Notes: a model not told the origin generated them from the sequence alone. A stretch of DNA of 54,208 nucleotides from an uncultured Myxococcales bacterium (GCA_964582775.1 CAZOTO010000004.1:1-54208); one strand, 5' to 3'; positions 24,330 to 49,911 are shown, counted from the first letter of the stretch. Program-made: numbers and translations.

Positions 24330-24414
24330 ACCGCCGAGTTTCCAGGGGTTGGTCCCTGCGGTTGACGAGGGGCGCCACCGCCTCCCATATTCGCCCCGGA
24401 CGAGGGGGGAGAGC

Positions 24415-25311
24415 GTGACGATATTCAGCCACTCGCGGCTGTCGGCTTTCGAGAACTGCCCTCGTCAGTACCGCTACCGCTACATCGAGAAGATTCCCGT
24501 CGAGACCGAAGGCATCGAGGCATTCGTCGGCAAGCGCGTCCACGAGATCCTCGAGCGGCTCTACCACCACGTCGCCCGCCACCGCAAGCCGCCGAGCCTC
24601 GGCCAGGTGCTCGACCGCTTCCGCAAGGATTGGGACGTCGCATTCCACGATCGCATCCGCGTCGTGCGCGAGGAGACCACCGCCGACGAGTACCGGGAAC
24701 GCGGCGAGCGGGGCCTCACGAACTACTACCGCTCGAACTATCCGTTCGAGACCGGCGAGACGGTGGGGCTCGAGCGCGCGCTCTCCATCCAGCTCGACGA
24801 GAGCGGCCGCTATCGCATGAGAGGAATCGTCGATCGGATCGTGCGGCGCGGACCGGGCCGCTACGAGATCCACGACTACAAGACCGGAGCGTCGCTGCCA
24901 CCGCGGCGCATCTTCGAACGCGATCGACAGCTCGCGCTCTACCAGATCGGCCTCGAGCAGACCTTCGACGACGTGGAAGAGGTCGAGCTCGTCTGGCACT
25001 ACCTCACCTTCAACCGCACGTTCACCCAAACGCGAAGCCCGGAGCAGCTCACCGAGCTTCGCACCGGGACGATCGCGCTGATCGACACGATCGAATCCGC
25101 GACGGAGCACCCACCGCGCACGGGCCCGCTGTGCCGCTGGTGCGACTACAACGAGATCTGCGATGCGGGGCGGGACGCGGCACGGCGCGGCGCGCCGGAT
25201 GCGACAGCGACGGATCTCGCGGCGAACGCCGACGGCGGAGCTCTGCCGGGTCGCGGAGCCGCGGCGGGCGACGCCTCGCTCGCCGCCACCCAGCTCTCCT
25301 GGCTCGACTGA
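24415..25311 (+). CDS. PD-(D/E)XK nuclease family protein with Cas4/AddB-like Fe-S cysteine set
   Basis: GTG at 24415 is preceded by GAGGGGGGAGAG. It has an N-terminal Cys (FENCPRQY), RecB-type motifs GIVDRI ... YEIHDYKTG ... RQLALYQ, and a C-terminal CRWCDYNEIC. The Ala/Gly-rich tail may be disordered. Confidence 0.75.
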   Translation: MTIFSHSRLSAFENCPRQYRYRYIEKIPVETEGIEAFVGKRVHEILERLYHHVARHRKPPSLGQVLDRFRKDWDVAFHDRIRVVREETTADEYRERGERGLTNYYRSNYPFETGETVGLERALSIQLDESGRYRMRGIVDRIVRRGPGRYEIHDYKTGASLPPRRIFERDRQLALYQIGLEQTFDDVEEVELVWHYLTFNRTFTQTRSPEQLTELRTGTIALIDTIESATEHPPRTGPLCRWCDYNEICDAGRDAARRGAPDATATDLAANADGGALPGRGAAAGDASLAATQLSWLD

Positions 25312-25363
25312 GGATCGATCGGTCCACCGCCGAGCGGACGGCGACGCGGCGTTGACGCTGGCC

Positions 25364-25377
25364 GTCACCCGGGTGAC
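25364..25377. promoter_or_regulatory. Perfect 14-bp palindrome GTCACCCGGGTGAC, candidate enhancer (UAS) site
   Basis: Read directly from the sequence. It sits about 100 bp upstream of the sigma-54-like promoter in the nuclease/topoisomerase VI intergenic region. A few such palindromes are expected by chance in 54 kb. Confidence 0.3.
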
Positions 25378-25472: not shown

Positions 25473-25488
25473 TGGCACGCCGAGTGCT
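25473..25488 (+). promoter_or_regulatory. Candidate sigma-54 (-24/-12) promoter
   Basis: TGGCACGCCGAGTGCT has GG at 25474-25475 and GC at 25486-25487. This is the exact spacing of the TGGCACG-N4-TTGC consensus, with one mismatch in the -12 element (GTGC). It lies about 45 nt upstream of the ATG at 25533, and an AT-rich tract (25418-25436) lies between it and the palindrome. Confidence 0.55.
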
Positions 25489-25532
25489 TCGTCCCAGAGG
25501 CGAATTCCGACGGATGTCGGGAGGGGAAGACG

Positions 25533-25742
25533 ATGACTGTGCGAGCGGCCATTCGAATCGAGAACCTGGAGGGGTTGGCCCCTCAAGTCTCCGAGGTGAT
25601 CACACTCCTCGACCTCGTGGCGGCGGTCGCGGAATCCGCCGAGAACGACGACGAGGTCGTGGCGACGGTACGAAGCCTGATCAACAGCGGAAAGGTCGCG
25701 ATTGTCGGCAACTTCGGCGGAGCGGACGTCCGGGTGAGCTGA
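25533..25742 (+). CDS. Small acidic hypothetical protein (69 aa), first gene of the topoisomerase VI operon
   Basis: ATG at 25533 is preceded by GGGAGGGGAAG. Sequence: MTVRAAIRIENLEGLAPQVSEVITLLDLVAAVAESAENDDEVVATVRSLINSGKVAIVGNFGGADVRVS. It ends 36 nt before top6B. The longer track version from 25440 would overlap the promoter-like element. Confidence 0.55.
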   Translation: MTVRAAIRIENLEGLAPQVSEVITLLDLVAAVAESAENDDEVVATVRSLINSGKVAIVGNFGGADVRVS

Positions 25743-25778
25743 CGCTACCCTCCCCCCGCTCTCGGGGGGTGAGGATCG

Positions 25779-27539
25779 ATGAACCGACTGCAGCCGTCTC
25801 TGCCGTTCGACGACGTCGCACCTGCGGAGACCCGGGAAGCGGGCACGAAGAAGCGCGCCGCACCCTCGCGTGGACGGGACCCCAAGGCAGAGGACCCGAA
25901 GGCGAAGGCCGCGAAGACGCAGCCCCGAGGAGCGCAGCGCAGCACGGCCGAGAAGCCGCGCCGGGCCGTCCGCCCTGCGGGTCCGATGGCAGGCGAGGAG
26001 CTCGCCGCGAAGCAGCGCGAGATCTCGGTCTCCGAGTTCTTCGCCAAGAACCGGCACCTGCTCGGCTTCGACAATCCGGCGAAAGCACTCCTCACCACGG
26101 TGAAGGAGCTCGTGGACAACGCTCTCGATGCGGCCGACGAGGCCCGCATCCCCGCGCAGATCGAGATCCGCATCGACGCGATCGCCGAGAACCAGTTCCG
26201 CGTGCGCTGCACGGACAACGGCCCCGGCATCCCGGCCCGGAACGTTCCCAGCGTGTTCGGCAAGCTGCTCTACGGCTCGAAGTTCCACCGGCTGCGCATG
26301 AGCCGCGGACAGCAGGGCATCGGGGTGAGCGCTGCCGGCATGTACGGCCTGCTCACCACGGGACATCCCGTTCGCGTGATCTCGAAGACGGCGCGCAGCA
26401 GGGCGCACAGGTTCGAGATCGCGATCGACACCCTGAAGAACCAACCCGCGGTGAAGCGCGAGGAGGAGATCGACTGGGACCAGCCCCATGGAACGAGCGT
26501 CGAGATCGAGCTCGAGGCCGCCTATCGCAAGGGCCAGCACTCCGTGGACGCCTACGTGCAGCAGATCTCGCTGGCGAATCCGCATGCGCGGCTCACCTAC
26601 CTGCCGCCGACCCGCACGAGCGACGAGGAAGCCATCGCGTTCGAGGCGGTGACGGGCGAGCTGCCCCCGGAGACGCTCGAGATCAAGCCGCATCCGTACG
26701 GCGTGGAGCTCGGTGTCCTCATGCAGATGCTGCGTGAGTCCCACGCGAAGAACGTGGTCGGCTTCCTCACGGCCGAGTTCAGCCGCGTGTCGTCGCGCAC
26801 GGCCGAGGAGATCTGTGCGACGGCCCGCATCTCCTCCTCGCGACGGCCCAACGCGATGGCGCGCGCCGAGGCCGAGGCACTGCACAAGGGCATCGCCCAC
26901 ACCAAGATCATGGCTCCGCCCACCGACTGCATCGCGCCGATCGGCGAGGAGCTGCTGCAGAAGGCGCTGCTCTCCATCCACAGCGCGGAGTTCGCGACGG
27001 CGATCACCCGTCGCCCTTCGGTGTACCGCGGCAATCCGTTCCTGGTCGAGGCAGCGCTCGCCTACGGCTCGCCCCTCTCCGCCGACGATCCGGCCGTCTG
27101 CTACCGCTACGCGAACCGGGTTCCGCTGCAGTATCAGCTCGGCGCCTGCGCGATCACGAAGGCGGCGACATCCGTCGACTGGCGGGGCTATGGACTCAAC
27201 CAGCCCAAGGGGTCGCTTCCCGTCGGGCCGCTCGTGATCATGGTGCACATCGCCAGTGTATGGGTGCCGTTCACCTCCGAGTCGAAGGAGGCGATCGCAC
27301 ACTATCCGGAGATCGTTCGCGAGATCCGCCTCGCGCTCCAGGACTGCGGGCGCCGGCTCGCCACGCATATCCGGCGACGACGGCGCGACGCGGACGAGCT
27401 CAAGAAGCGAAGCTACATCCAGAAGTACATCCCCCACGTCGCGCAGGCGCTGCAGCAGATCCTGGGCTTGCCCGACGCGGAACGGGAGCAGACGATCACC
27501 ACGCTCACCGACGTGCTCGAGCGGAGCCGGAGCCTGTAG
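25779..27539 (+). CDS. top6B: DNA topoisomerase VI subunit B
   Basis: GHKL motifs are present: ELVDNALDA, DNGPGI, GQQGIG. So are ISVSEFFAKNRHLLGFDNP, typical of the Top6B N-terminus, and a transducer region. ATG at 25779 is preceded by GGTGAGGA. An in-frame ATG at 25986 (MAGEELAAKQREISV) is an alternative start that would remove the basic N-terminal tail. Confidence 0.9.
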   Translation: MNRLQPSLPFDDVAPAETREAGTKKRAAPSRGRDPKAEDPKAKAAKTQPRGAQRSTAEKPRRAVRPAGPMAGEELAAKQREISVSEFFAKNRHLLGFDNPAKALLTTVKELVDNALDAADEARIPAQIEIRIDAIAENQFRVRCTDNGPGIPARNVPSVFGKLLYGSKFHRLRMSRGQQGIGVSAAGMYGLLTTGHPVRVISKTARSRAHRFEIAIDTLKNQPAVKREEEIDWDQPHGTSVEIELEAAYRKGQHSVDAYVQQISLANPHARLTYLPPTRTSDEEAIAFEAVTGELPPETLEIKPHPYGVELGVLMQMLRESHAKNVVGFLTAEFSRVSSRTAEEICATARISSSRRPNAMARAEAEALHKGIAHTKIMAPPTDCIAPIGEELLQKALLSIHSAEFATAITRRPSVYRGNPFLVEAALAYGSPLSADDPAVCYRYANRVPLQYQLGACAITKAATSVDWRGYGLNQPKGSLPVGPLVIMVHIASVWVPFTSESKEAIAHYPEIVREIRLALQDCGRRLATHIRRRRRDADELKKRSYIQKYIPHVAQALQQILGLPDAEREQTITTLTDVLERSRSL

Positions 27540-28750
27540 TGGCCACGCGCAAGAAGGCGACGACGAAGAAGACGACGGGGGCCGCAACGGCCACGAAGCA
27601 AGCCGCGAGCGCTGCGCCCGAGCGAGGAAGCTCCGCGCGCAAGCCGGGACCGGGCGCCACGGACGAGCAGACCATCGTCGCCATCGACGGCACCGCCCGT
27701 CGCGTGTACGAAACGATTCGCAAGCGGCAGAAGCCGGGCCTGTCGTTTCCCGTGCGTGCCCTCTCCAACGTCTCGTATCACCAGAAACGCGGCTATCTGG
27801 AGATCGGATCGCAGAAGAAGGAGCGCACGCTATCGGTGAACACGGTGAAGAGCTTCGCCCAGACGCTTCGCATGATGGCGCTGTCCAAGGAGCTGGTGAG
27901 CAACAACGACTTCGCCACGAAGCGGGAGGCCTACTACATCTCGAAGAACTGGGGCGACGCGAAGTTCGACGAACAGGTCGAGTCGGACACTGCAATGGAC
28001 GACATCGAGGCGCTGTTCAGCGTGGACCGGATCAACCGCGAGCAGCTGCGATTCTTCCCCGAGGAGCACGGAGGATCGGTATCGGGCCCTCTCGTGGTGA
28101 TCGACCGCGACGCGACAGGGCGGCTCACGCGCATCGACTGCACGAACTTCGGAACGGGCGCCTACTCCGTTCCGTCCTCGGTCGAGCAGCTCGAGTTCGA
28201 GACCGATGCGGAGTTCGTCCTGCTGATCGAGACGGGCGGCATGTTCCAGCGCCTGCAATCGCATCGCTTCTGGGAGACTCGCAACTGCATCCTCGTCGAG
28301 ATGGGAGGCGTGCCTACCCGGGCCGTGCGCCGCTTCGTGCGCCGCTTGGCCGACGAGAAGCGACTGCCGATCTACGCGTTCGTCGACTGCGATCCGTACG
28401 GGATCGCCAACATCTACCGCACGCTCAAGGTGGGGTCGGGCTCCGCAGCCCACGTGAACCAGTTCTTCTGCGTACCCAGTGCACGGTTCCTCGGCGTGAC
28501 ACCACAGGACATCGTCGACTACGAGCTCCCCACGCATCCCCTGAAGGACGTGGACGTGAAGCGGGCGAAGGACGCTCTGAAGAACGATCCCTTCTTCCAG
28601 AGCCACCCCCAGTGGAGAAAGGCCATCGATCAGCTGCTGTCGATGGGCGTTCGCGCGGAGCAGCAGGCGCTCGCGATGTGGGGGCTCAACTACGTGATCG
28701 ACGAATACCTGCCGCAGAAGCTCGCGCACCCCGAGCGATTCCTGCCCTGA
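27539..28750 (+). CDS. top6A: DNA topoisomerase VI subunit A (Spo11 family)
   Basis: GTG at 27539 overlaps the top6B TAG (TAGTG). It has a catalytic-Tyr region (KREAYYISKNW), a Toprim Glu (LLIETGGMFQRL) and the DxD motif (FVDCDPYGIANIY). A basic Lys/Thr/Ala-rich N-terminal tail is present. Confidence 0.9.
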   Translation: MATRKKATTKKTTGAATATKQAASAAPERGSSARKPGPGATDEQTIVAIDGTARRVYETIRKRQKPGLSFPVRALSNVSYHQKRGYLEIGSQKKERTLSVNTVKSFAQTLRMMALSKELVSNNDFATKREAYYISKNWGDAKFDEQVESDTAMDDIEALFSVDRINREQLRFFPEEHGGSVSGPLVVIDRDATGRLTRIDCTNFGTGAYSVPSSVEQLEFETDAEFVLLIETGGMFQRLQSHRFWETRNCILVEMGGVPTRAVRRFVRRLADEKRLPIYAFVDCDPYGIANIYRTLKVGSGSAAHVNQFFCVPSARFLGVTPQDIVDYELPTHPLKDVDVKRAKDALKNDPFFQSHPQWRKAIDQLLSMGVRAEQQALAMWGLNYVIDEYLPQKLAHPERFLP

Positions 28751-38506: not shown

Positions 38507-38569
38507 CCTTCTTCCTCCCGGTAGAGTGCCCAATCAATAGGCAACTCTGGCAGGACACGGAAGCGCCCC

Positions 38570-39651
38570 ATGAGCACGAGCTTCGAACGCCTGGACGCCA
38601 TCGTGGGCTCGCTGCAGGTCGGGATCCTGGCCGTGGACGGTGACGGTGCCGTGCAGCTGCAGAATCCCGAGGCGAGCCGGATCCTCGGCGTGTCGTCCGA
38701 GATCACGCTGGGTCGGCCCCTCGCGCTGGCGCTCGGCGCCGACCATCCCGCCGTGCCGTTGCTCGAGCGCGCGCGTCGCACGGAGCGCCCCGTCTCGGCC
38801 CACGCATGCACGCTTCCCTCCCGGTTCGGCGCGGAGCCGCTCGTGGTCGACCTCGCAGCGGCGCCCATCGGTCCCGAGGACGAGAGCGCAGGGGCGGTCC
38901 TTACGCTTCGCGATCGAACGATCGGACGCGAGCTCGAATCCCTCGTCGACCAGCGCACGCGATCCGAGGTGTTCGCGCACCTGGCATCGGGAATCGCGCA
39001 CGAGCTGGGGAATCCCCTCGGTGGCATTCGCGGCGCTGCGGAGCTGCTGCTCGGCAAGCTCCAGGATCCGGCGCTCCGACGCTACCCGGAGCTCATCTGC
39101 GCGGAGACGGACCGCATGCGCCGCCTGCTACGGGATCTCGCGGAGCTCACACCGGGGGGATCCCTGCAGCCGCAGCCGACGAACGTGCACCGCGTGCTCG
39201 ACGACATCCTCGAGCTCCAGCGCCAGGCGTCGGGTTGGAGCGAGATCGACGTGCGACGCGAATACGATCCGAGCATTCCCGAGATCGAGCTCGATCCCGA
39301 CCGCATGACCCAGGTGTTCCTCAACCTGATCCGCAACGCCGTACAGTCCATGCCCCAGGGAGGCACGCTCACGATTCGCACCCGTGTCGAGTCGACCTAC
39401 CAGATCTCTCCCGAGTCGCCGCTGCCTTCGAACATGGTGCGCATCGACATCGAGGACACGGGCAAGGGGATCGCCGAGGAGCACCTCCCTCACATCTTCA
39501 CGCCGTTCTTCACGGGCCGCCCCGAGGGGACGGGTCTCGGACTTCCCATCGCCGAGCACTGGACGGTGCGGCACGGCGGTAGCCTGCAGGTAACGAGCCG
39601 AACCGGCGAGGGCACACGGGCACGCGTGCTCCTGCCCTTGCGAAGGCGGAC

Positions 39652-39655
<4 letters not shown>
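38570..39655 (+). CDS. NtrB-like sensor histidine kinase (PAS-HisKA-HATPase, cytoplasmic)
   Basis: H-box SGIAHELGNPLGGIRG, N-box LNLIRNAVQSM, G-boxes DTGKGI and GTGLGL. No TM segment seen. It overlaps the downstream regulator gene by 4 nt. Confidence 0.8.
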
Positions 39656-41094
<1,439 letters not shown>

Positions 41095-45565: not shown

Positions 45566-47620
45566 TCAGAACGCCCAGCGCACCTGCCCGTAGACGTTGC
45601 GCTGCACCTCGACCTGCTGGATCTCCGGCGGCCAGATGTAGTCGCCGCGGAACTCGGAATGGCGGCGGTCGAAGAGGTCCTGGACCCCGACGGCGACCTC
45701 CAGTCTCTCGCAGGGCTTCCAGCCCAGGCGCAGATCCGTCCGCCAGTGCGAGCCGATCCGGTAGGAGCCGAAGGCGTCCTTGAACGCACGCCGCCCCGTG
45801 TAGTAGAGGCCCAGATCGAGCTCGATCTGCTCCGTCACGTTCAGATACGAATGCAGCTGCATCTGATGGCGCGGCGTCTTGCCCTCGAGGCCCATGTTCC
45901 GGCGCATGCCGCGCTCCTGCACGCGCTGGCCGGTCCACGATCCGGTGAGCCTCCAGTCGTTCCGAACCTGCCAGGTCGCCTCGACCTCGGCACCGTAGAC
46001 GCGAGCCTCCGAGCGATTGTCGAAGGTGAGCGAGGTGGGGCTCAGCGGGGTGTCGGTCGTGATCATGTTGTCGTAGTCGTTGAAGAAGAGCGCGCTGTCG
46101 ATGCTGACCTTCGATGAAGGCTGAACGCGGTAGCCGATCTCGTAGGCAAGCATCACCTCGGCCCCGAGATCTTCGTCCCCCACGATCGTGAATGGCGCAT
46201 AGAGCCCTGGAGCCACGGGGATGGCCGCAGCGATCAAGTCGATGTCACGGTCTGCACGAGTCGGCGTGCGAACGGACCGCGAGACCGAGGCCCACACCTG
46301 GTTCCAGTCGTTGGGTGTCCAGAGCATGCGCGCGCTCGGCTGCAGCTCCCATCCCGTGATGTCGTTCCACTCGACCTTCGAGCCCACGGTGGCCGTGAGG
46401 AGCTCGGGAACGAGGACGTGCTCGAGCTGCCCGAATCCACTCCAGATCACCTCGCGCCGGTTCTCCTTCCGGAAAGAGAGGCCGGGTGCGCCCTCGTCGG
46501 TCCGGCTGTCGTTCTGCCTCCAGCCAAGTCCCCAGAGGAAGTCGTCCGCATCCGCGAGCTTCCAGTTGTGCTGCAGGGTGAGATCCATGGTCCTTCGCGT
46601 CTCGCCGACCTGGAAGGTGTCCGACCTCTCGACATCGACGTAGCCAGCCAGCTCGATGGACTGATCCTCATCGAGCTTGCGCGTCCAATCGAAGTTGCCG
46701 TTGCCCCCCCAGTTCTCGTGCTGGCCATGCACGACGCTCTGTCCGGCAAGGAATCCTGGAATCATGGGGTGCAGTGCGTACGAGAAGTTCGAGGTGCGGA
46801 GATCCTGCTGGAAATAGCTGCCGGTGAACGTCACCTGATCCCGCTCCGACGGCGTCCAGTCGAGCCGCGTGTGTGCGGTGCCCACTCGACCTTGATTCGA
46901 GGACGCATCGTGCTCGCCCCTGCGCAGCGTGTGGTCGCGATCGAGATATCCGATCGAGACGCGATAGCCGAGCGTCTCGCCCACCTTGCCCCCGTGACGA
47001 AGCGTTCCGAAGGCGTGCTCTTCGGTGCCGGCGCCCGGGCTCACGAGCGTGCCCTGCGTGTCCTCCGTGGACTTCGTGAGGATGTTGATCACGCCGTTCA
47101 CGGCATTCGCACCCCACACGGTGGCGCCGGGGCCGCGGATCACCTCGATCCGCTCGATGTCCTCGATCGGAACGTGGAGGGACTCCCACTTCACCCCGCC
47201 GAAGGTCGGCGTGTATACGCTGCGGCCGTCCACCATGACGAGCAGCTTGTTCGAGTACTGCTGCTCCATGCCGCGGATGCTGATGGCGTACTCGGTGGCC
47301 GAGACGCGCGCCACGTTCACGCCAGGAGCCAGGCGCAGGATCTCGGGAATGCTGTGCAGGCCGGAGCGGCGGATCGTGTCGTCCGTGATCACATGGATCG
47401 CAGACGCCGTCTCCGACAGGCGCTGCGCCTTCTTCGAGACCGATGTCACCTCTGTGTTCAGTAGATCCTCGAGCGTGATCTCCGTGATGGCAGAGGCCGT
47501 GTCCAGATCCTTCGCCTCGACCGGTGCCCCCCCGAGACCGAGCGCCCATCCGAGAAGAGCGGCACCGATTGCGCCGCGCGCACGCATGCTCCCCACCGCG
47601 GGGGCATTCCTTCGCTTCAT
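45566..47620 (-). CDS. TonB-dependent receptor
   Basis: ATG at 47620 is preceded by GGAGGGAG. It has a signal peptide, a plug domain (IPEILRLAPGVNV ... IERIEVIRGPGATVWGANAVNGVINI) and a beta-barrel ending in a terminal aromatic residue (RWAF). The upstream 300 aa of track ORF 45566..48526 are antisense to asd. Confidence 0.85.
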   Translation of the reverse strand: MKRRNAPAVGSMRARGAIGAALLGWALGLGGAPVEAKDLDTASAITEITLEDLLNTEVTSVSKKAQRLSETASAIHVITDDTIRRSGLHSIPEILRLAPGVNVARVSATEYAISIRGMEQQYSNKLLVMVDGRSVYTPTFGGVKWESLHVPIEDIERIEVIRGPGATVWGANAVNGVINILTKSTEDTQGTLVSPGAGTEEHAFGTLRHGGKVGETLGYRVSIGYLDRDHTLRRGEHDASSNQGRVGTAHTRLDWTPSERDQVTFTGSYFQQDLRTSNFSYALHPMIPGFLAGQSVVHGQHENWGGNGNFDWTRKLDEDQSIELAGYVDVERSDTFQVGETRRTMDLTLQHNWKLADADDFLWGLGWRQNDSRTDEGAPGLSFRKENRREVIWSGFGQLEHVLVPELLTATVGSKVEWNDITGWELQPSARMLWTPNDWNQVWASVSRSVRTPTRADRDIDLIAAAIPVAPGLYAPFTIVGDEDLGAEVMLAYEIGYRVQPSSKVSIDSALFFNDYDNMITTDTPLSPTSLTFDNRSEARVYGAEVEATWQVRNDWRLTGSWTGQRVQERGMRRNMGLEGKTPRHQMQLHSYLNVTEQIELDLGLYYTGRRAFKDAFGSYRIGSHWRTDLRLGWKPCERLEVAVGVQDLFDRRHSEFRGDYIWPPEIQQVEVQRNVYGQVRWAF

Positions 47621-47927
47621 GTCTCCCTCCACTTCCGAAGCGGGGCGGGTCCGTGGCAGGCGGCCCGCCGCATCCAGGCGCAGCTTCTCGGCGCGAGGAG
47701 CGGATTCCTTAGCCTGCGAGCCGTTCGCGTCCGCTGGACCCTTGGCCGTGGGCAAGGCTGACGATACGATCCCTCCCTGTCGCAACACGGGCCGCTCGAA
47801 GGGGCGCCCGGGTTGGATCACACCCGGCACGACCGGGGTGCCCCCGAACCACCCGGCTTTCGCGTTCGCGAACGAGCCGGGGCAGAGGCCGAGCCTCCGG
47901 ATCGAAGCGCCGGCGAGGAAGTGGATC

Positions 47928-48956
47928 ATGGCAGGAGCGAACGAACGAGGACGAAGGGTCGCCATTGCGGGGGCGACCGGCGCGGTGGGAGAGGTGCTCC
48001 TGCGCATCCTCGAGGAGCGAAACTTTCCAGTGTCGGAGCTGCGGCCGCTGGCGAGCGAGCGCTCCGCGGGCACGTCGATCGAGTTCCGGGGCGAGCGCAT
48101 CCCCGTGCAGGCCGCTCGGCCCGAGGCCTTCGAGGATGTGGACTTCGTCTTCTTCGCAGCAACCGGGGAGCTGTCGAAGACGCTCGCTCCCGAGGTCGTC
48201 CGCCACGGTGGCATCGCCATCGACAAATCGGGTACCTGGCGCATGAACGACGACGTCCCACTCGTCGTCCCCGAGGTGAACGGTGCCGATGTGGAGAAGC
48301 ACAAGGGCATCCTGTCCTGTCCGAACTGCACGACGATCCCGTTCGTCATGTGCCTGAAGGCGCTCCACGACGCAGCGGGCGTGCGCAGTGCCGTGGTCAC
48401 CACGCTGCAGGCCGTGAGTGGCGCAGGACTTCCAGGCATCGAGGAGCTCGAGGCCCAGCAGAACGCGATCCACGATGGGAAGCCCATCCCTGCGCCGGCG
48501 AAATTCGTGGCACAGATCGCGAACAACGTGGTGCCGCTGTGCGAGACGCTACGCGACGACGGCTACTCCACCGAGGAGGTGAAGCTGCTCTTCGAGTCGC
48601 GCAAGATCCTCGGGATGCCCGATCTCGAGGTCACGATGACGTGCGTGCGCGTACCCGTGCCGGTCGGACACGCCGCATCCATCCTCGTCGAGACACAGCG
48701 GCCCCTCGGGGCGGAGGCGGCCCGGGCCGCCCTCGCGTCCTTCCCGGGAATCCAGGTTGTCGACGATGTGGCCCACGCCCGGTTCCCGACCCCCGCAGAC
48801 GTCGCCGGGAAGGACGCCGTGCTCGTCGGGCGCATCCGAAAGGATCTCGGCAGCGATCGCCTCTGGCTTTGGGAGGTCGGTGACAATCTGCGCAAGGGAG
48901 CCGCGACGAATGCCGTTCAGATCGCGGAAGAGCTGATCCGGCGGGGCCTGCGGTAG
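47928..48956 (+). CDS. asd: Aspartate-semialdehyde dehydrogenase
   Basis: Motifs seen: VAIAGATGAVG, the active-site SCPNCTT, QAVSGAG, and GDNLRKGAA near the C-terminus. Confidence 0.9.
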   Translation: MAGANERGRRVAIAGATGAVGEVLLRILEERNFPVSELRPLASERSAGTSIEFRGERIPVQAARPEAFEDVDFVFFAATGELSKTLAPEVVRHGGIAIDKSGTWRMNDDVPLVVPEVNGADVEKHKGILSCPNCTTIPFVMCLKALHDAAGVRSAVVTTLQAVSGAGLPGIEELEAQQNAIHDGKPIPAPAKFVAQIANNVVPLCETLRDDGYSTEEVKLLFESRKILGMPDLEVTMTCVRVPVPVGHAASILVETQRPLGAEAARAALASFPGIQVVDDVAHARFPTPADVAGKDAVLVGRIRKDLGSDRLWLWEVGDNLRKGAATNAVQIAEELIRRGLR

Positions 48957-48996
48957 CGCATCCGTCGGATGGCGGTCCGATCGGTATACTCGCGCC

Positions 48997-49911
48997 ATGT
49001 CCGCATCGCCCGAACTCGACGTCGCCCCTCCGGGTCCGACGGGATCCAGCGCTCCCGCCGGACTCGCTCCCGCGAGTCCGGCGGGAGCGCTTGCTCGTGC
49101 GCTCACCTGGATCTGGCCGGCTCTGCTCGTGCTCGCCTTCGCGCCGACCGTAGGCTGGCTCTGGGAGCGCTGGACGCTCAGCGTCTGGTACAACGGCCAC
49201 GGTCTGTTCATGCCGTTCATCGTGGCGTACCTGGTGTGGGAGGATCTTCGCGACGATCCGAACCGCGAGGCTGCCGCGTCGCCCTGGGGATTCCTCTTCC
49301 TCGTCTCGGGGCTCGGCCTGCTCGTCCTCGACAGCGCCATCCGCAGCCAACTCCTGGCCGCGATCGGACTCGTCGTCTGCCTACCGGGTCTCTCGCTGCT
49401 CCTTCTCGGCAGCACGCGGACCCGCCGGCTCGCGTTCCCGCTGATCATCGCGGCCTTCATGCTGCCGATCCCGGCGGGATTCCTCTCCTCGGTGTACCTC
49501 GGCCTGCGCGAGATCACGGCTTGGGGAACGGCACACATCGTCCCGCTCCTCGGCATTCCGATCCTGCGTGACGGAACCATGCTCCTCACGCCGCGCAGTC
49601 CCGTCCAGGTGGCCGACGCATGCAGCGGCTTCTCGACCCTGTACGCGGCGGTCACCACCGCACTGATCCTCTCGCATTTGAGCCCGTCTTGGCGCCGCAG
49701 GGTCGCGCTGCTCGCGAGCTCGGTCGTGCTGGCGCTCGCCTGCAACATCGTGCGCGTCACGATCCTCGTCCTGATCATCCACCTCTGGGGCGTCGAGCCG
49801 CTCGAGACGAAGCTGCACGAGGGCTCGGGCGTGGCGACGTTCTTGGTGGTCATCGCGGCGCTCTTCGCCATCGCGGGCCGCGAGACGCTCACGGGGAAAC
49901 GGTCCGCGTGA
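48997..49911 (+). CDS. Exosortase family protein (EpsH/Xrt-like)
   Basis: Polytopic 304-aa protein with the conserved exosortase residues in context: DACSGF (Cys), ACNIVRV (Asn/Arg), LHEGSG (His). Confidence 0.8.
   Translation: MSASPELDVAPPGPTGSSAPAGLAPASPAGALARALTWIWPALLVLAFAPTVGWLWERWTLSVWYNGHGLFMPFIVAYLVWEDLRDDPNREAAASPWGFLFLVSGLGLLVLDSAIRSQLLAAIGLVVCLPGLSLLLLGSTRTRRLAFPLIIAAFMLPIPAGFLSSVYLGLREITAWGTAHIVPLLGIPILRDGTMLLTPRSPVQVADACSGFSTLYAAVTTALILSHLSPSWRRRVALLASSVVLALACNIVRVTILVLIIHLWGVEPLETKLHEGSGVATFLVVIAALFAIAGRETLTGKRSA

Follow-up and report, generated by a model that had tools for sequence, protein, structure and literature searches.

Topoisomerase VI genes in an uncultured bacterium, with candidate links to the replisome and to sigma-54

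What a complete DNA topoisomerase VI (Topo VI) does in a bacterium, and how it may have been fitted to its host, is the question raised by three successive plus-strand open reading frames (ORFs), called here small69, top6B and top6A, at 25.5-28.8 kb of a 54,208-nt stretch of DNA from an uncultured Myxococcales bacterium (GCA_964582775.1 CAZOTO010000004.1:1-54208; the whole stretch is referred to as the window). Topo VI is a type IIB enzyme in which an ATP-driven clamp of B subunits captures one duplex, which is passed through a transient double-strand break made by two A-subunit tyrosines; it relaxes supercoils and, preferentially, decatenates. Judged by translation and alignment, Top6B and Top6A are bona fide Topo VI subunits, intact and with every catalytic residue in place, and there is little doubt that the operon encodes a functional enzyme. 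The set small69-top6B-top6A is probably a three-gene operon for an A2B2 type IIB topoisomerase with bacterial-specific additions.

The subunits and their proposed role

A first-pass annotation of the window had reported both subunits as intact, with six sequence motifs, and had let Topo VI begin at position 25533. The six motifs were recovered in the translations at the expected positions, and profile and structure matches (Pfam, NCBIfam for the B subunit, PDB) place both proteins in the Topo VI families. Position 25533 proved to be the ATG of the separate 69-aa ORF small69, top6B beginning at 25779.

Top6B matches the Pfam profiles Topo-VIb_trans (5e-58, 195.8 bits against a cut-off of 24) and HATPase_c (3.8e-12, 47 bits, cut-off 26), and the NCBIfam equivalogs NF003218 (662 bits, cut-off 274) and TIGR01052 (515 bits, cut-off 381). 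Its residues 72-562 align without a break to residues 6-494 of the 621 residues of the M. mazei chain 2q2e_B (2e-139), the H2TH segment between the GHKL and transducer domains included. The ATPase motifs read ELVDNALDA (aa 110-118), DNGPGI (aa 146-151) and GQQGIG (aa 177-182); in the PDB alignments these N-box, G1 and G2 motifs line up with their M. mazei and S. shibatae counterparts, and the archaeal structures have SESKDAI and SAGKESI where Top6B has SESKEAI, the segment that contains the switch lysine K503. Top6A matches TP6A_N (1.5e-15, 57 bits, cut-off 26), Topo_VI_alpha (9.5e-18, above cut-off) and TOP6A-Spo11_Toprim (4.8e-59, 199.6 bits against a cut-off of 24), and is 56% identical over 304 aa to M. 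jannaschii Top6A (PDB 1d3y; 1.1e-114, 387 bits). Its catalytic motifs are KREAYY (aa 128-133), IETGG (aa 230-234) and DCDPYG (aa 283-288). The catalytic tyrosine and the acidic residues of the Toprim domain are retained: Y133 is aligned to the second tyrosine of REAYY in 1d3y, which we take to be Tyr103, and E231 and D283/D285 align with AIETSG and TDGDPYG of the same structure. At the top6B/top6A junction (CTGTAGTGGCC) base 27539 belongs both to the TAG stop (27537-27539) and to the GTG start (27539-27541), as the annotation had it (TAGTG); the equivalent junction in relatives is TGATG.

One result speaks against the assignment of the A subunit, in that Top6A scores below all six NCBIfam PRK04342 equivalog cut-offs (best NF003337, 471 bits against 675). 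These models are narrow, archaeal and lineage-specific, and the failed scores bear on automatic naming, not on family membership. The same equivalog models carry the odd title "DNA topoisomerase IV subunit A", and close Top6A relatives at NCBI (P0018, P0079, P0087) bear this misleading name, so that surveys could miss bacterial Topo VI or overcount Topo IV.

Two peculiarities were observed among relatives of these genes. Many Top6B representatives have at least 1000 residues (P0255, P0257, P0258, P0264, P0272 and others) and their match to the query is broken in two near query residues 170-185, the G2-box region, as would be expected if inteins were inserted in the ATP-binding site. Moreover, 2.5-5.6 kb separate top6B from top6A in three Planctomycetota loci (L008, L018, L020).

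Topo VI has been listed in 17 bacterial families (Allen & Maxwell 2024, PMC11302465), including the Anaeromyxobacteraceae, Vulgatibacteraceae and Polyangiaceae of the Myxococcota, the Pirellulaceae and Thermoguttaceae, and several Planctomycetota families. Gyrase is present and Topo IV absent in the Topo VI-bearing bacterial groups, Myxococcota included, for which Topo VI was proposed as the decatenase, its bacterial role being said to remain to be established (PMC11302465). Bacterial Topo VI clusters adjacent to Methanococcales and DPANN, and its B subunit is without the Ig-like C-terminal domain; M. mazei Topo VI is weak and distributive, and plant Topo VI requires the DNA-binding partners RHL1 and BIN4 (PMC11302465). 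Bacterial Topo VI, in Myxococcota and Planctomycetota among others, is already documented, and the window adds one example. The first-pass annotation, which called the bacterial enzyme sporadic and its role largely unstudied, understated present knowledge in view of the 17 families (PMC11302465) and of more than 100 close clusters.

Compared with the archaeal enzymes (M. mazei 2Q2E, S. shibatae 2ZBK, M. jannaschii 1D3Y), the Topo VI of the window has the same subunits, domain order and catalytic residues. It differs from them by its bacterial host, by about 70 extra disordered basic residues at the N-terminus of Top6B and by an extra Lys-rich tail on Top6A, and from M. mazei Top6B by the absence of the Ig-like C-terminal domain, since the alignment ends at residue 494 of 621. 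With the bacterial enzymes of PMC11302465 it has in common membership of a bacterial clade nested within archaeal Topo VI close to Methanococcales and DPANN, the missing Ig-like domain and an apparent Myxococcota host. Plant Topo VI with RHL1 and BIN4 offers another parallel, both systems consisting of a core A2B2 enzyme plus extra DNA-binding capacity or partners; in the window, however, the basic segments are fused to the subunits, and the only candidate partner is the acidic small69 product, unrelated to RHL1 or BIN4.

Because Topo VI-carrying Myxococcota have been reported to be without Topo IV (PMC11302465), replication-linked decatenation and relaxation alongside gyrase would be the most likely job of the enzyme, a reading that we somewhat favour. 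No gyrase, Topo IV or dnaN genes lie within the 54-kb window, a statement that covers the window and not the whole genome. We propose the following course of events. An archaeal Topo VI would have moved into bacteria and then been fitted to the bacterial replisome, Top6B gaining a peptide for beta-clamp binding at its N-terminus, with a long basic tether, and Top6A a Lys-rich tail. Bacterial Topo VI would in this way be a client of DnaN, decatenating and relaxing DNA at or just behind the fork in place of Topo IV, and in this Myxococcota lineage it would have come under a switch made of sigma-54 and an enhancer-binding protein, with a dedicated 69-aa partner protein. This picture, built from sequence features, is tentative, and the chance that all of its parts hold jointly falls somewhat short of even. 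PMC11302465 makes no mention of a clamp-like motif, of basic tails, of small69 or of a sigma-54 promoter, and full-text literature searches found no published link of Topo VI with clamp binding, DnaN or sigma-54. If the clamp link were true, it would provide a case of a horizontally acquired DNA enzyme adapted to the replisome of its host via a short linear motif, and would explain how Topo VI can replace Topo IV. In any case the comparison turns the role of bacterial Topo VI into specific testable features, namely a clamp-like peptide, basic tails, a candidate partner and a sigma-54 promoter.

The clamp-like peptide and the basic extensions

Top6B starts with M-N-R-L-Q5-P-S-L-P-F10-D-D (N-terminal peptide MNRLQPSLPFDDVA), and the hexapeptide QPSLPF at its extreme N-terminus is followed by a basic linker that leads to the GHKL core. 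Residues 1-72 have a Lys+Arg fraction of 0.24 and a pI of 11.2, and AlphaFold2 (AF2) gives a pLDDT below 50 over residues 1-82, the core being confidently folded. The extension is absent altogether at archaeal Top6B loci. Among the bacterial relatives the linker varies widely in length and sequence while the motif at its N-terminal end is kept, in forms such as QQTLPF, QQSLPF, QRSLPL, QPRLPF, QGLLF, QQSLF, QESFAF, QETFAF and QQSFAF.

The frequency of the motif was determined in 106 close homologues of Top6B, gene-called and with extensions of 25 residues or more, of which the first 25 residues were scanned for Q-x-x-[LM]-F or Q-x-x-[LFM]-x-[FL]. It was found in 74 of them, starting at residue 4-6 in 63 of the 74, whereas composition-preserving shuffles yielded 0.10 carriers on average and never more than 2. 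An independent set of 40 loci, mostly from Planctomycetota, has Q..LF or Q..LPF in 17 cases (shuffles 0.11), and either of these forms or [ST]LF[DEG] in 27 (shuffles 0.17). The motif always lies a few residues past a start codon. Farther Top6B representatives, clustered at 50% identity, have variants such as QLSLL, QLVLV and QPALSL.

Peptides of this kind are known from proteins that bind the sliding clamp. The clamp-binding consensus is QL[S/D]LF or QxxLF, in which positions 1, 4 and 5 are the critical ones; among the hexapeptide motifs are QLSLPL of Hda and QTSMAF of the Pol III epsilon subunit, and xxxLF variants occur in DnaE3 (PMC12309361). In Caulobacter HdaA the motif 4-QFKLPL-9 is needed to reach the replisome (PMC3836487). 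Top6B of the window resembles Hda, HdaA and other clamp clients in having a Gln-anchored hydrophobic peptide within its first 10 residues, in a flexible segment. The resemblance of QPSLPF to QLSLPL and QFKLPL is one of sequence, with positions 2 and 6 off consensus. On these grounds, the view that the Top6B peptide acts as a clamp tether is a possibility only just short of evenly balanced: QPSLPF, on its disordered basic linker of about 70 aa, would anchor Topo VI to DnaN clamps at the fork or behind it. We know of no type II topoisomerase for which a motif of this kind has been reported to mediate clamp binding.

Two observations weigh against a clamp tether. QPSLPF has Q1, L4 and F6 and yet fits neither consensus exactly, with Pro at position 2 and Phe instead of Leu at position 6; the variants QRSLPL, QGLLF, QQSLF and QESFAF of the homologues are closer to the clamp consensus. 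In addition, the motif is missing in some sister lineages (L001, L002, L067, L070, L071, and proteins starting MSKNAAARKR...), and for these it would be dispensable. Alternatively, the N-terminal Q-x-S-[LF]-[AP]-F may be a real short linear motif that binds something other than the beta clamp, such as a different replisome protein, a segregation protein, a protease adaptor or Top6A itself. We regard this as a serious if clearly less than even possibility, given that the clamp case rests on resemblance, that the peptide departs from the textbook consensus, and that Planctomycetota frequently have P-[TS]-L-F-D without the Gln. Nevertheless, the positions that count in clamp motifs are the ones kept here: Gln comes first, the fourth residue is hydrophobic, and the fifth or sixth is aromatic or Leu; QESFAF, QQSFAF and QRSLPL differ little from QTSMAF of epsilon and QLSLPL of Hda; and Gln-less xxxLF variants are themselves known for DnaE3 (PMC12309361). 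The N-terminal site on a disordered tail is moreover that of Hda and HdaA, and the peptide is present in bacterial homologues only, not in archaeal ones.

The second addition is found on Top6A, which begins with a Lys/Thr/Ala-rich basic tail. Nearly all bacterial Top6A homologues have such a tail, with an MA-x-(R/K)KK start, 25-70 aa long and with about 34% Lys+Arg, whereas archaeal Top6A has 6-20 ordinary residues in its place. Lysine-repeat tails occur on other bacterial DNA enzymes, and by analogy the tail would, with about even probability, add non-specific DNA affinity. The two additions do not always occur together: in a Planctomycetota subclade (L031, L033, L035, L045, L059) Top6B is nearly without extension (starting around ...ATRKKHSTA) and has no clamp-like motif, and the Lys-rich Top6A tail is still present.

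The small upstream gene and its putative promoter

The first cistron, small69, is a real conserved gene by its sequence signature: the GC fraction is 0.81 at third (GC3) and 0.41 at second (GC2) codon positions, dN/dS against near relatives is 0.05-0.18, and the core TLLDLV...E(V/I)(V/I)AT(V/I)...SG...G.F is invariant. The product is acidic (pI 4.3) and forms only 13 sequence clusters in the 5.8-billion-protein collection from which protein relatives were drawn. It has no significant match in Pfam, NCBIfam (a single match at E 0.18 and 10 bits) or PADLOC. AF2 predicts a beta-alpha-alpha-beta-beta core (pLDDT 78-89), for which Foldseek against the PDB returned nothing at E<1 (best 1.5) and no interpretable fold match; a histone-fold or winged-helix reading, also considered, finds no support in that search.

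Three features connect small69 with the genes downstream. First, it lies directly 5' of top6B in most places where it occurs. Outside the window, a profile search of all fetched loci detected small69 in 11 (L001, L002, L061-L065, L067-L069), immediately upstream of top6B in L001, L061-L063, L065 and L067-L069. Second, the spacing is 36 nt in the window and 33-40 nt in six loci (window, L061/L062, L063, L065, L067, L069), with longer gaps in L001 (74 nt) and L068 (186 nt as called), and the gap sequence is conserved above coding wobble positions. Third, a hairpin is predicted in this gap, with a C-rich 5' half (TGACGCTACCCTCC) that is invariant over 6 diverged loci, and a G-rich 3' arm overlapping with the Shine-Dalgarno sequence of top6B (GGGGGGTGAGGA); folding predicts this hairpin in 6 loci. 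Together with the overlapping stop and start codons of top6B and top6A, a hairpin over the Shine-Dalgarno sequence suggests that the three cistrons are translationally linked. In the scheme proposed here small69 would be co-transcribed with the Topo VI genes, and its translation would be linked with that of top6B by way of the hairpin over the top6B Shine-Dalgarno sequence; its product may be a partner or a regulator of Topo VI.

Upstream of small69 lies a sigma-54-type -24/-12 element, TGGCACGCCGAGTGCT, 44 nt from the start codon. It is the sole match to TGGCAC-N5-KTGCW in the 54 kb, with 0.06 expected, and departs from TGGCAC-N5-TTGCW by one mismatch (G for T before GC), with exact -24/-12 spacing. 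An equivalent element is found 12-70 nt 5' of the small69 homologue in 11/11 loci, in intergenic DNA that is otherwise poorly conserved, and there is no such element 5' of top6B in the loci without small69. Further upstream, the 15-bp palindrome TGACG-N5-CGTCA (TGACGCTGGCCGTCA), the only match in the window, is a candidate upstream activating sequence (UAS) for a sigma-54 enhancer-binding protein. Palindromes of the type TGACR-N5-YGTCA lie 105-109 nt 5' of the -24 element in 8 related loci, and this distance is constant although that between promoter and ATG ranges from 12 to 70 nt. Such constant geometry is what the site of an enhancer-binding protein would be predicted to show. The rpoN gene is not among the genes of the 54-kb window; the organism presumably uses sigma-54, since an NtrC-family sigma-54 activator (bacterial enhancer-binding protein, bEBP) is encoded in it. 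This gene and that of a PAS histidine kinase form a pair about 10 kb downstream of the Topo VI genes, which keeps its position in a 2.9-Mb relative (L068 19009..21236). The NtrC-family regulator could at most be called a candidate activator of the operon promoter.

Transcription of the operon is probably sigma-54-dependent, as far as can be told from these elements, and would then need an enhancer-binding activator, expression of Topo VI being conditional on it. That an operon including small69 stands under this promoter is, on the same kind of evidence, quite probable. Several points weigh against this reconstruction. A decatenase that may be essential would be an unusual target of sigma-54 control. 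About 4 kb are inserted between small69 and top6B in L002, and on the short contig L064 a distant small69 homologue precedes an unrelated small ORF and not top6B, both of which indicate that the link of small69 with Topo VI is not obligatory. The hairpin has a fold energy of -21.3 kcal/mol and a z of only -1.8, and shows no covariation, the sequences being too conserved to test for it. Alternatively, small69 and its sigma-54 promoter might be an independent regulated gene that happens to lie beside top6BA, with Topo VI transcribed from a promoter of its own that was not recognised. The arrangements in L002 and L064 fit this view, the L064 homologue having the promoter and a different downstream gene, as does the absence of small69, by profile search, from the Planctomycetota Topo VI loci and from two Myxococcota-like ones (L070, L071). 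It is nonetheless rather unlikely: the gap of 33-40 nt in six loci, its conservation above wobble positions and its pairing with the top6B Shine-Dalgarno sequence, the lack of a terminator-like site or a sigma-70-like promoter in the gap, and the retention of the arrangement down to about 65-75% Top6B identity all argue for small69 as the first gene of the Topo VI operon.

Upstream of the small69 homologue of L064 (1827..2155, GC 74%), at a distance of 21 nt, lies a sigma-54 element without mismatch, TGGCACCCCGATTGCT, which indicates that the small69 family is sigma-54-linked in itself and not always tied to Topo VI. A scan of 24.2-29.2 kb for sigma-70 promoters and intrinsic terminators gave nothing informative, with a single promoter-like match 5' of the nuclease gene that precedes the sigma-54 region. 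This gene encodes a Cas4/AddB-like PD-(D/E)XK nuclease (PDDEXK_1 2e-33, PADLOC Cas4 3e-13) with a C-terminal Cys cluster, CRWCDYNEIC, and is kept just 5' of the sigma-54 region in L061, L063, L065 and L067-L069. No CRISPR array and no cas genes occur within the window. The nuclease gene was considered as a member of the operon and rejected, with the sigma-54 region lying between it and small69 and the gene absent from L001 and L002.

Genomic setting and relatives

The type of enzyme and its residence in the bacterial genome can each be questioned. Defence systems and mobile elements are known to have co-opted Toprim/5Y-CAP proteins (PMC7671362, PMC10123090), and the pair might be a repurposed nuclease: a Spo11/Top6BL-like break maker, a defence nuclease of the Wadjet JetD/MksG type, or a Topo VIII/Mini-A mobile-element protein. 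The Toprim part of Top6A has weak PADLOC matches to JetD (24 bits), a Cas4-like nuclease is encoded upstream, and Topo VIII, Mini-A, JetD and MksG have the Toprim and 5Y-CAP fold in common with Top6A. This reading is very improbable all the same. The A and B genes are separate and adjacent, whereas Topo VIII is a single fusion and Mini-A is without a B partner, and this, together with JetD matches of only 24 bits, negligible against 200 bits for the Toprim profile and 387 bits for the PDB match, speaks against Topo VIII, Mini-A and a defence nuclease alike. In Top6B the ATP site is complete, the transducer and switch lysine are present, and the protein scores above archaeal equivalog cut-offs; no JetABC or MksBEF genes are nearby, and the neighbourhood is conserved and of housekeeping character. 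Unlike these remote proteins, fused or without a B subunit and located on plasmids or in defence islands, the Topo VI of the window is chromosomal, syntenic and canonical.

The locus is almost certainly resident in a bacterial genome, which is also what the first-pass annotation had concluded from the flanking genes and the GC content. The names it gave to the flanks are borne out by profile matches: xthA (317 bits, cut-off 99), cysE as an EpsC/CysE-type serine acetyltransferase (154 bits, cut-off 150), ptsP as PTS enzyme I (PTS EI-Ntr) with an N-terminal GAF domain, and fur as a Fur-family protein. The remaining genes are typical of Gram-negative bacteria (TatD, ABC transporters, a hybrid histidine kinase, a YhdP-like protein, MoeA), and further bacterial genes encode the histidine kinase and NtrC-family activator, a methyl-accepting chemotaxis protein, a TonB-dependent receptor and an exosortase. 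The GC content of the Topo VI locus, 0.66-0.68, does match that of the window (0.65-0.74) in a genome of roughly 69% GC, and GC3 (0.90 in top6B, 0.88 in the core of top6A) equals that of neighbouring genes. The order xthA, acetyltransferase(-), PD-(D/E)XK nuclease, small ORF, top6B, top6A, epimerase(-), fur(-), followed by HTH, YhdP, MoeA, histidine kinase and bEBP, is kept in at least five independent assemblies from different samples (Logan L065/L066, ENA L067 of 2.26 Mb and L068 of 2.9 Mb, JGI L069); the contigs of the Mb-scale relatives are ERZ28763718 ctg125309 and ERZ21271453 contig_34430. No integrase, transposase, tRNA, repeats or mobile-element genes flank the locus within the window, and a scan of the whole window with Rfam gathering thresholds and for tRNAs had no matches, hence no RNA markers or integration sites. 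That Topo VI is archetypally archaeal, that Top6A is 56% identical to the M. jannaschii protein and that the local GC is slightly under that of the left half of the window might suggest archaeal contamination, a chimeric assembly or a very recent horizontally acquired island, for which there is next to no chance with bacterial genes on both sides, host-like GC3, no flanking mobility functions and hundreds of bacterial relatives in a clade apart from archaea, and which the recurrence of the gene order in independent assemblies, Mb-scale contigs among them, excludes.

The host appears to be a high-GC Myxococcota-like bacterium, a taxonomy that rests on the names of the nearest proteins from metagenome-assembled genomes (MAGs) and on synteny. 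The best database matches are 96% identical for Top6A and 95% for Top6B, and the lineage is known from metagenomes only. More than 100 Top6A clusters are above 70% identity, several of them named "Myxococcota bacterium" and most without names, and the picture for Top6B is similar. Among the matches listed in a scan of species-representative genomes there are at least dozens of MAGs with Topo VI, mostly of Planctomycetota, and none of these matches exceeds 74% identity to the protein of the window. In a rough neighbour-joining (NJ) tree of Top6A, the window falls in a single bacterial clade with Planctomycetota and Acidobacteriota; DPANN archaea form the sister group of this clade, M. jannaschii branches just outside, and M. 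mazei is distant. The position agrees with the published transfer from archaea to bacteria near Methanococcales/DPANN (PMC11302465). The coordinates of the features discussed are collected in Table 1.

Table 1. Positions of the Topo VI genes, of their sequence features and of other genes named in the text, counted from the first base of the window.
Feature	Position	Strand	Description
sigma-54 UAS candidate	25353..25367	+	15-bp palindrome
sigma-54-type -24/-12 element	25473..25488	+	GG 25474-25475, GC 25486-25487; predicted start near 25498-25500
small69	25533..25742	+	69-aa ORF, ATG start, TGA stop; first cistron
Predicted hairpin	25749..25774	+	C-rich/G-rich; in the 36-nt gap
top6B	25779..27539	+	Topo VI subunit B, 586 aa, ATG start, TAG stop; GHKL ATPase, H2TH, transducer
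Top6B residues 5-10	25791..25808	+	Q5-P-S-L-P-F10, beta-clamp-binding-motif-like peptide; translation confirmed
Top6B residues 11-72	25809..25994	+	Disordered basic low-complexity linker, motif to GHKL core
top6A	27539..28750	+	Topo VI subunit A, 403 aa, GTG start; 5Y-CAP/winged-helix, all-beta, Toprim
Top6A residues 1-45	27539..27673	+	Basic N-terminal tail (M/V-ATRKKATTKK...), pI 10.6
Top6A Tyr133	27935-27937	+	Catalytic tyrosine, translated
Top6A Glu231	28229-28231	+	Toprim Glu, translated
Top6A Asp283/Asp285	28385-28393	+	Catalytic residues, translated
PD-(D/E)XK nuclease	24367..25311	+	Cas4/AddB-like
PAS histidine kinase and bEBP	38525..41094	+	Gene pair
NtrC-family bEBP	39583..41094	+	sigma-54 activator
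TonB-dependent receptor	45566..48562	-	
Exosortase	48937..49911	+	EpsH family

Some of the relatives have doubtful labels. L002 (CAXMOC010000023.1, labelled Opitutales) and the Myxococcota MAG L001 share the gene order ComM/Mg-chelatase, small69, top6B, top6A, rfbA, rfbC, then ApbE and fur; Top6A of L002 is 74% identical to that of the window, and its Opitutales label is probably a binning error. Several contigs from "Methanosarcinales" binchicken MAGs fall with DPANN sequences in the tree, and their labels are likewise doubtful. Towards the right end of the window, the exosortase gene (2.8e-55) adjoins that of the TonB-dependent receptor, and a PEP-CTERM-type regulator signature among the matches of the bEBP, taken with the exosortase, hints at a PEP-CTERM/exosortase system.

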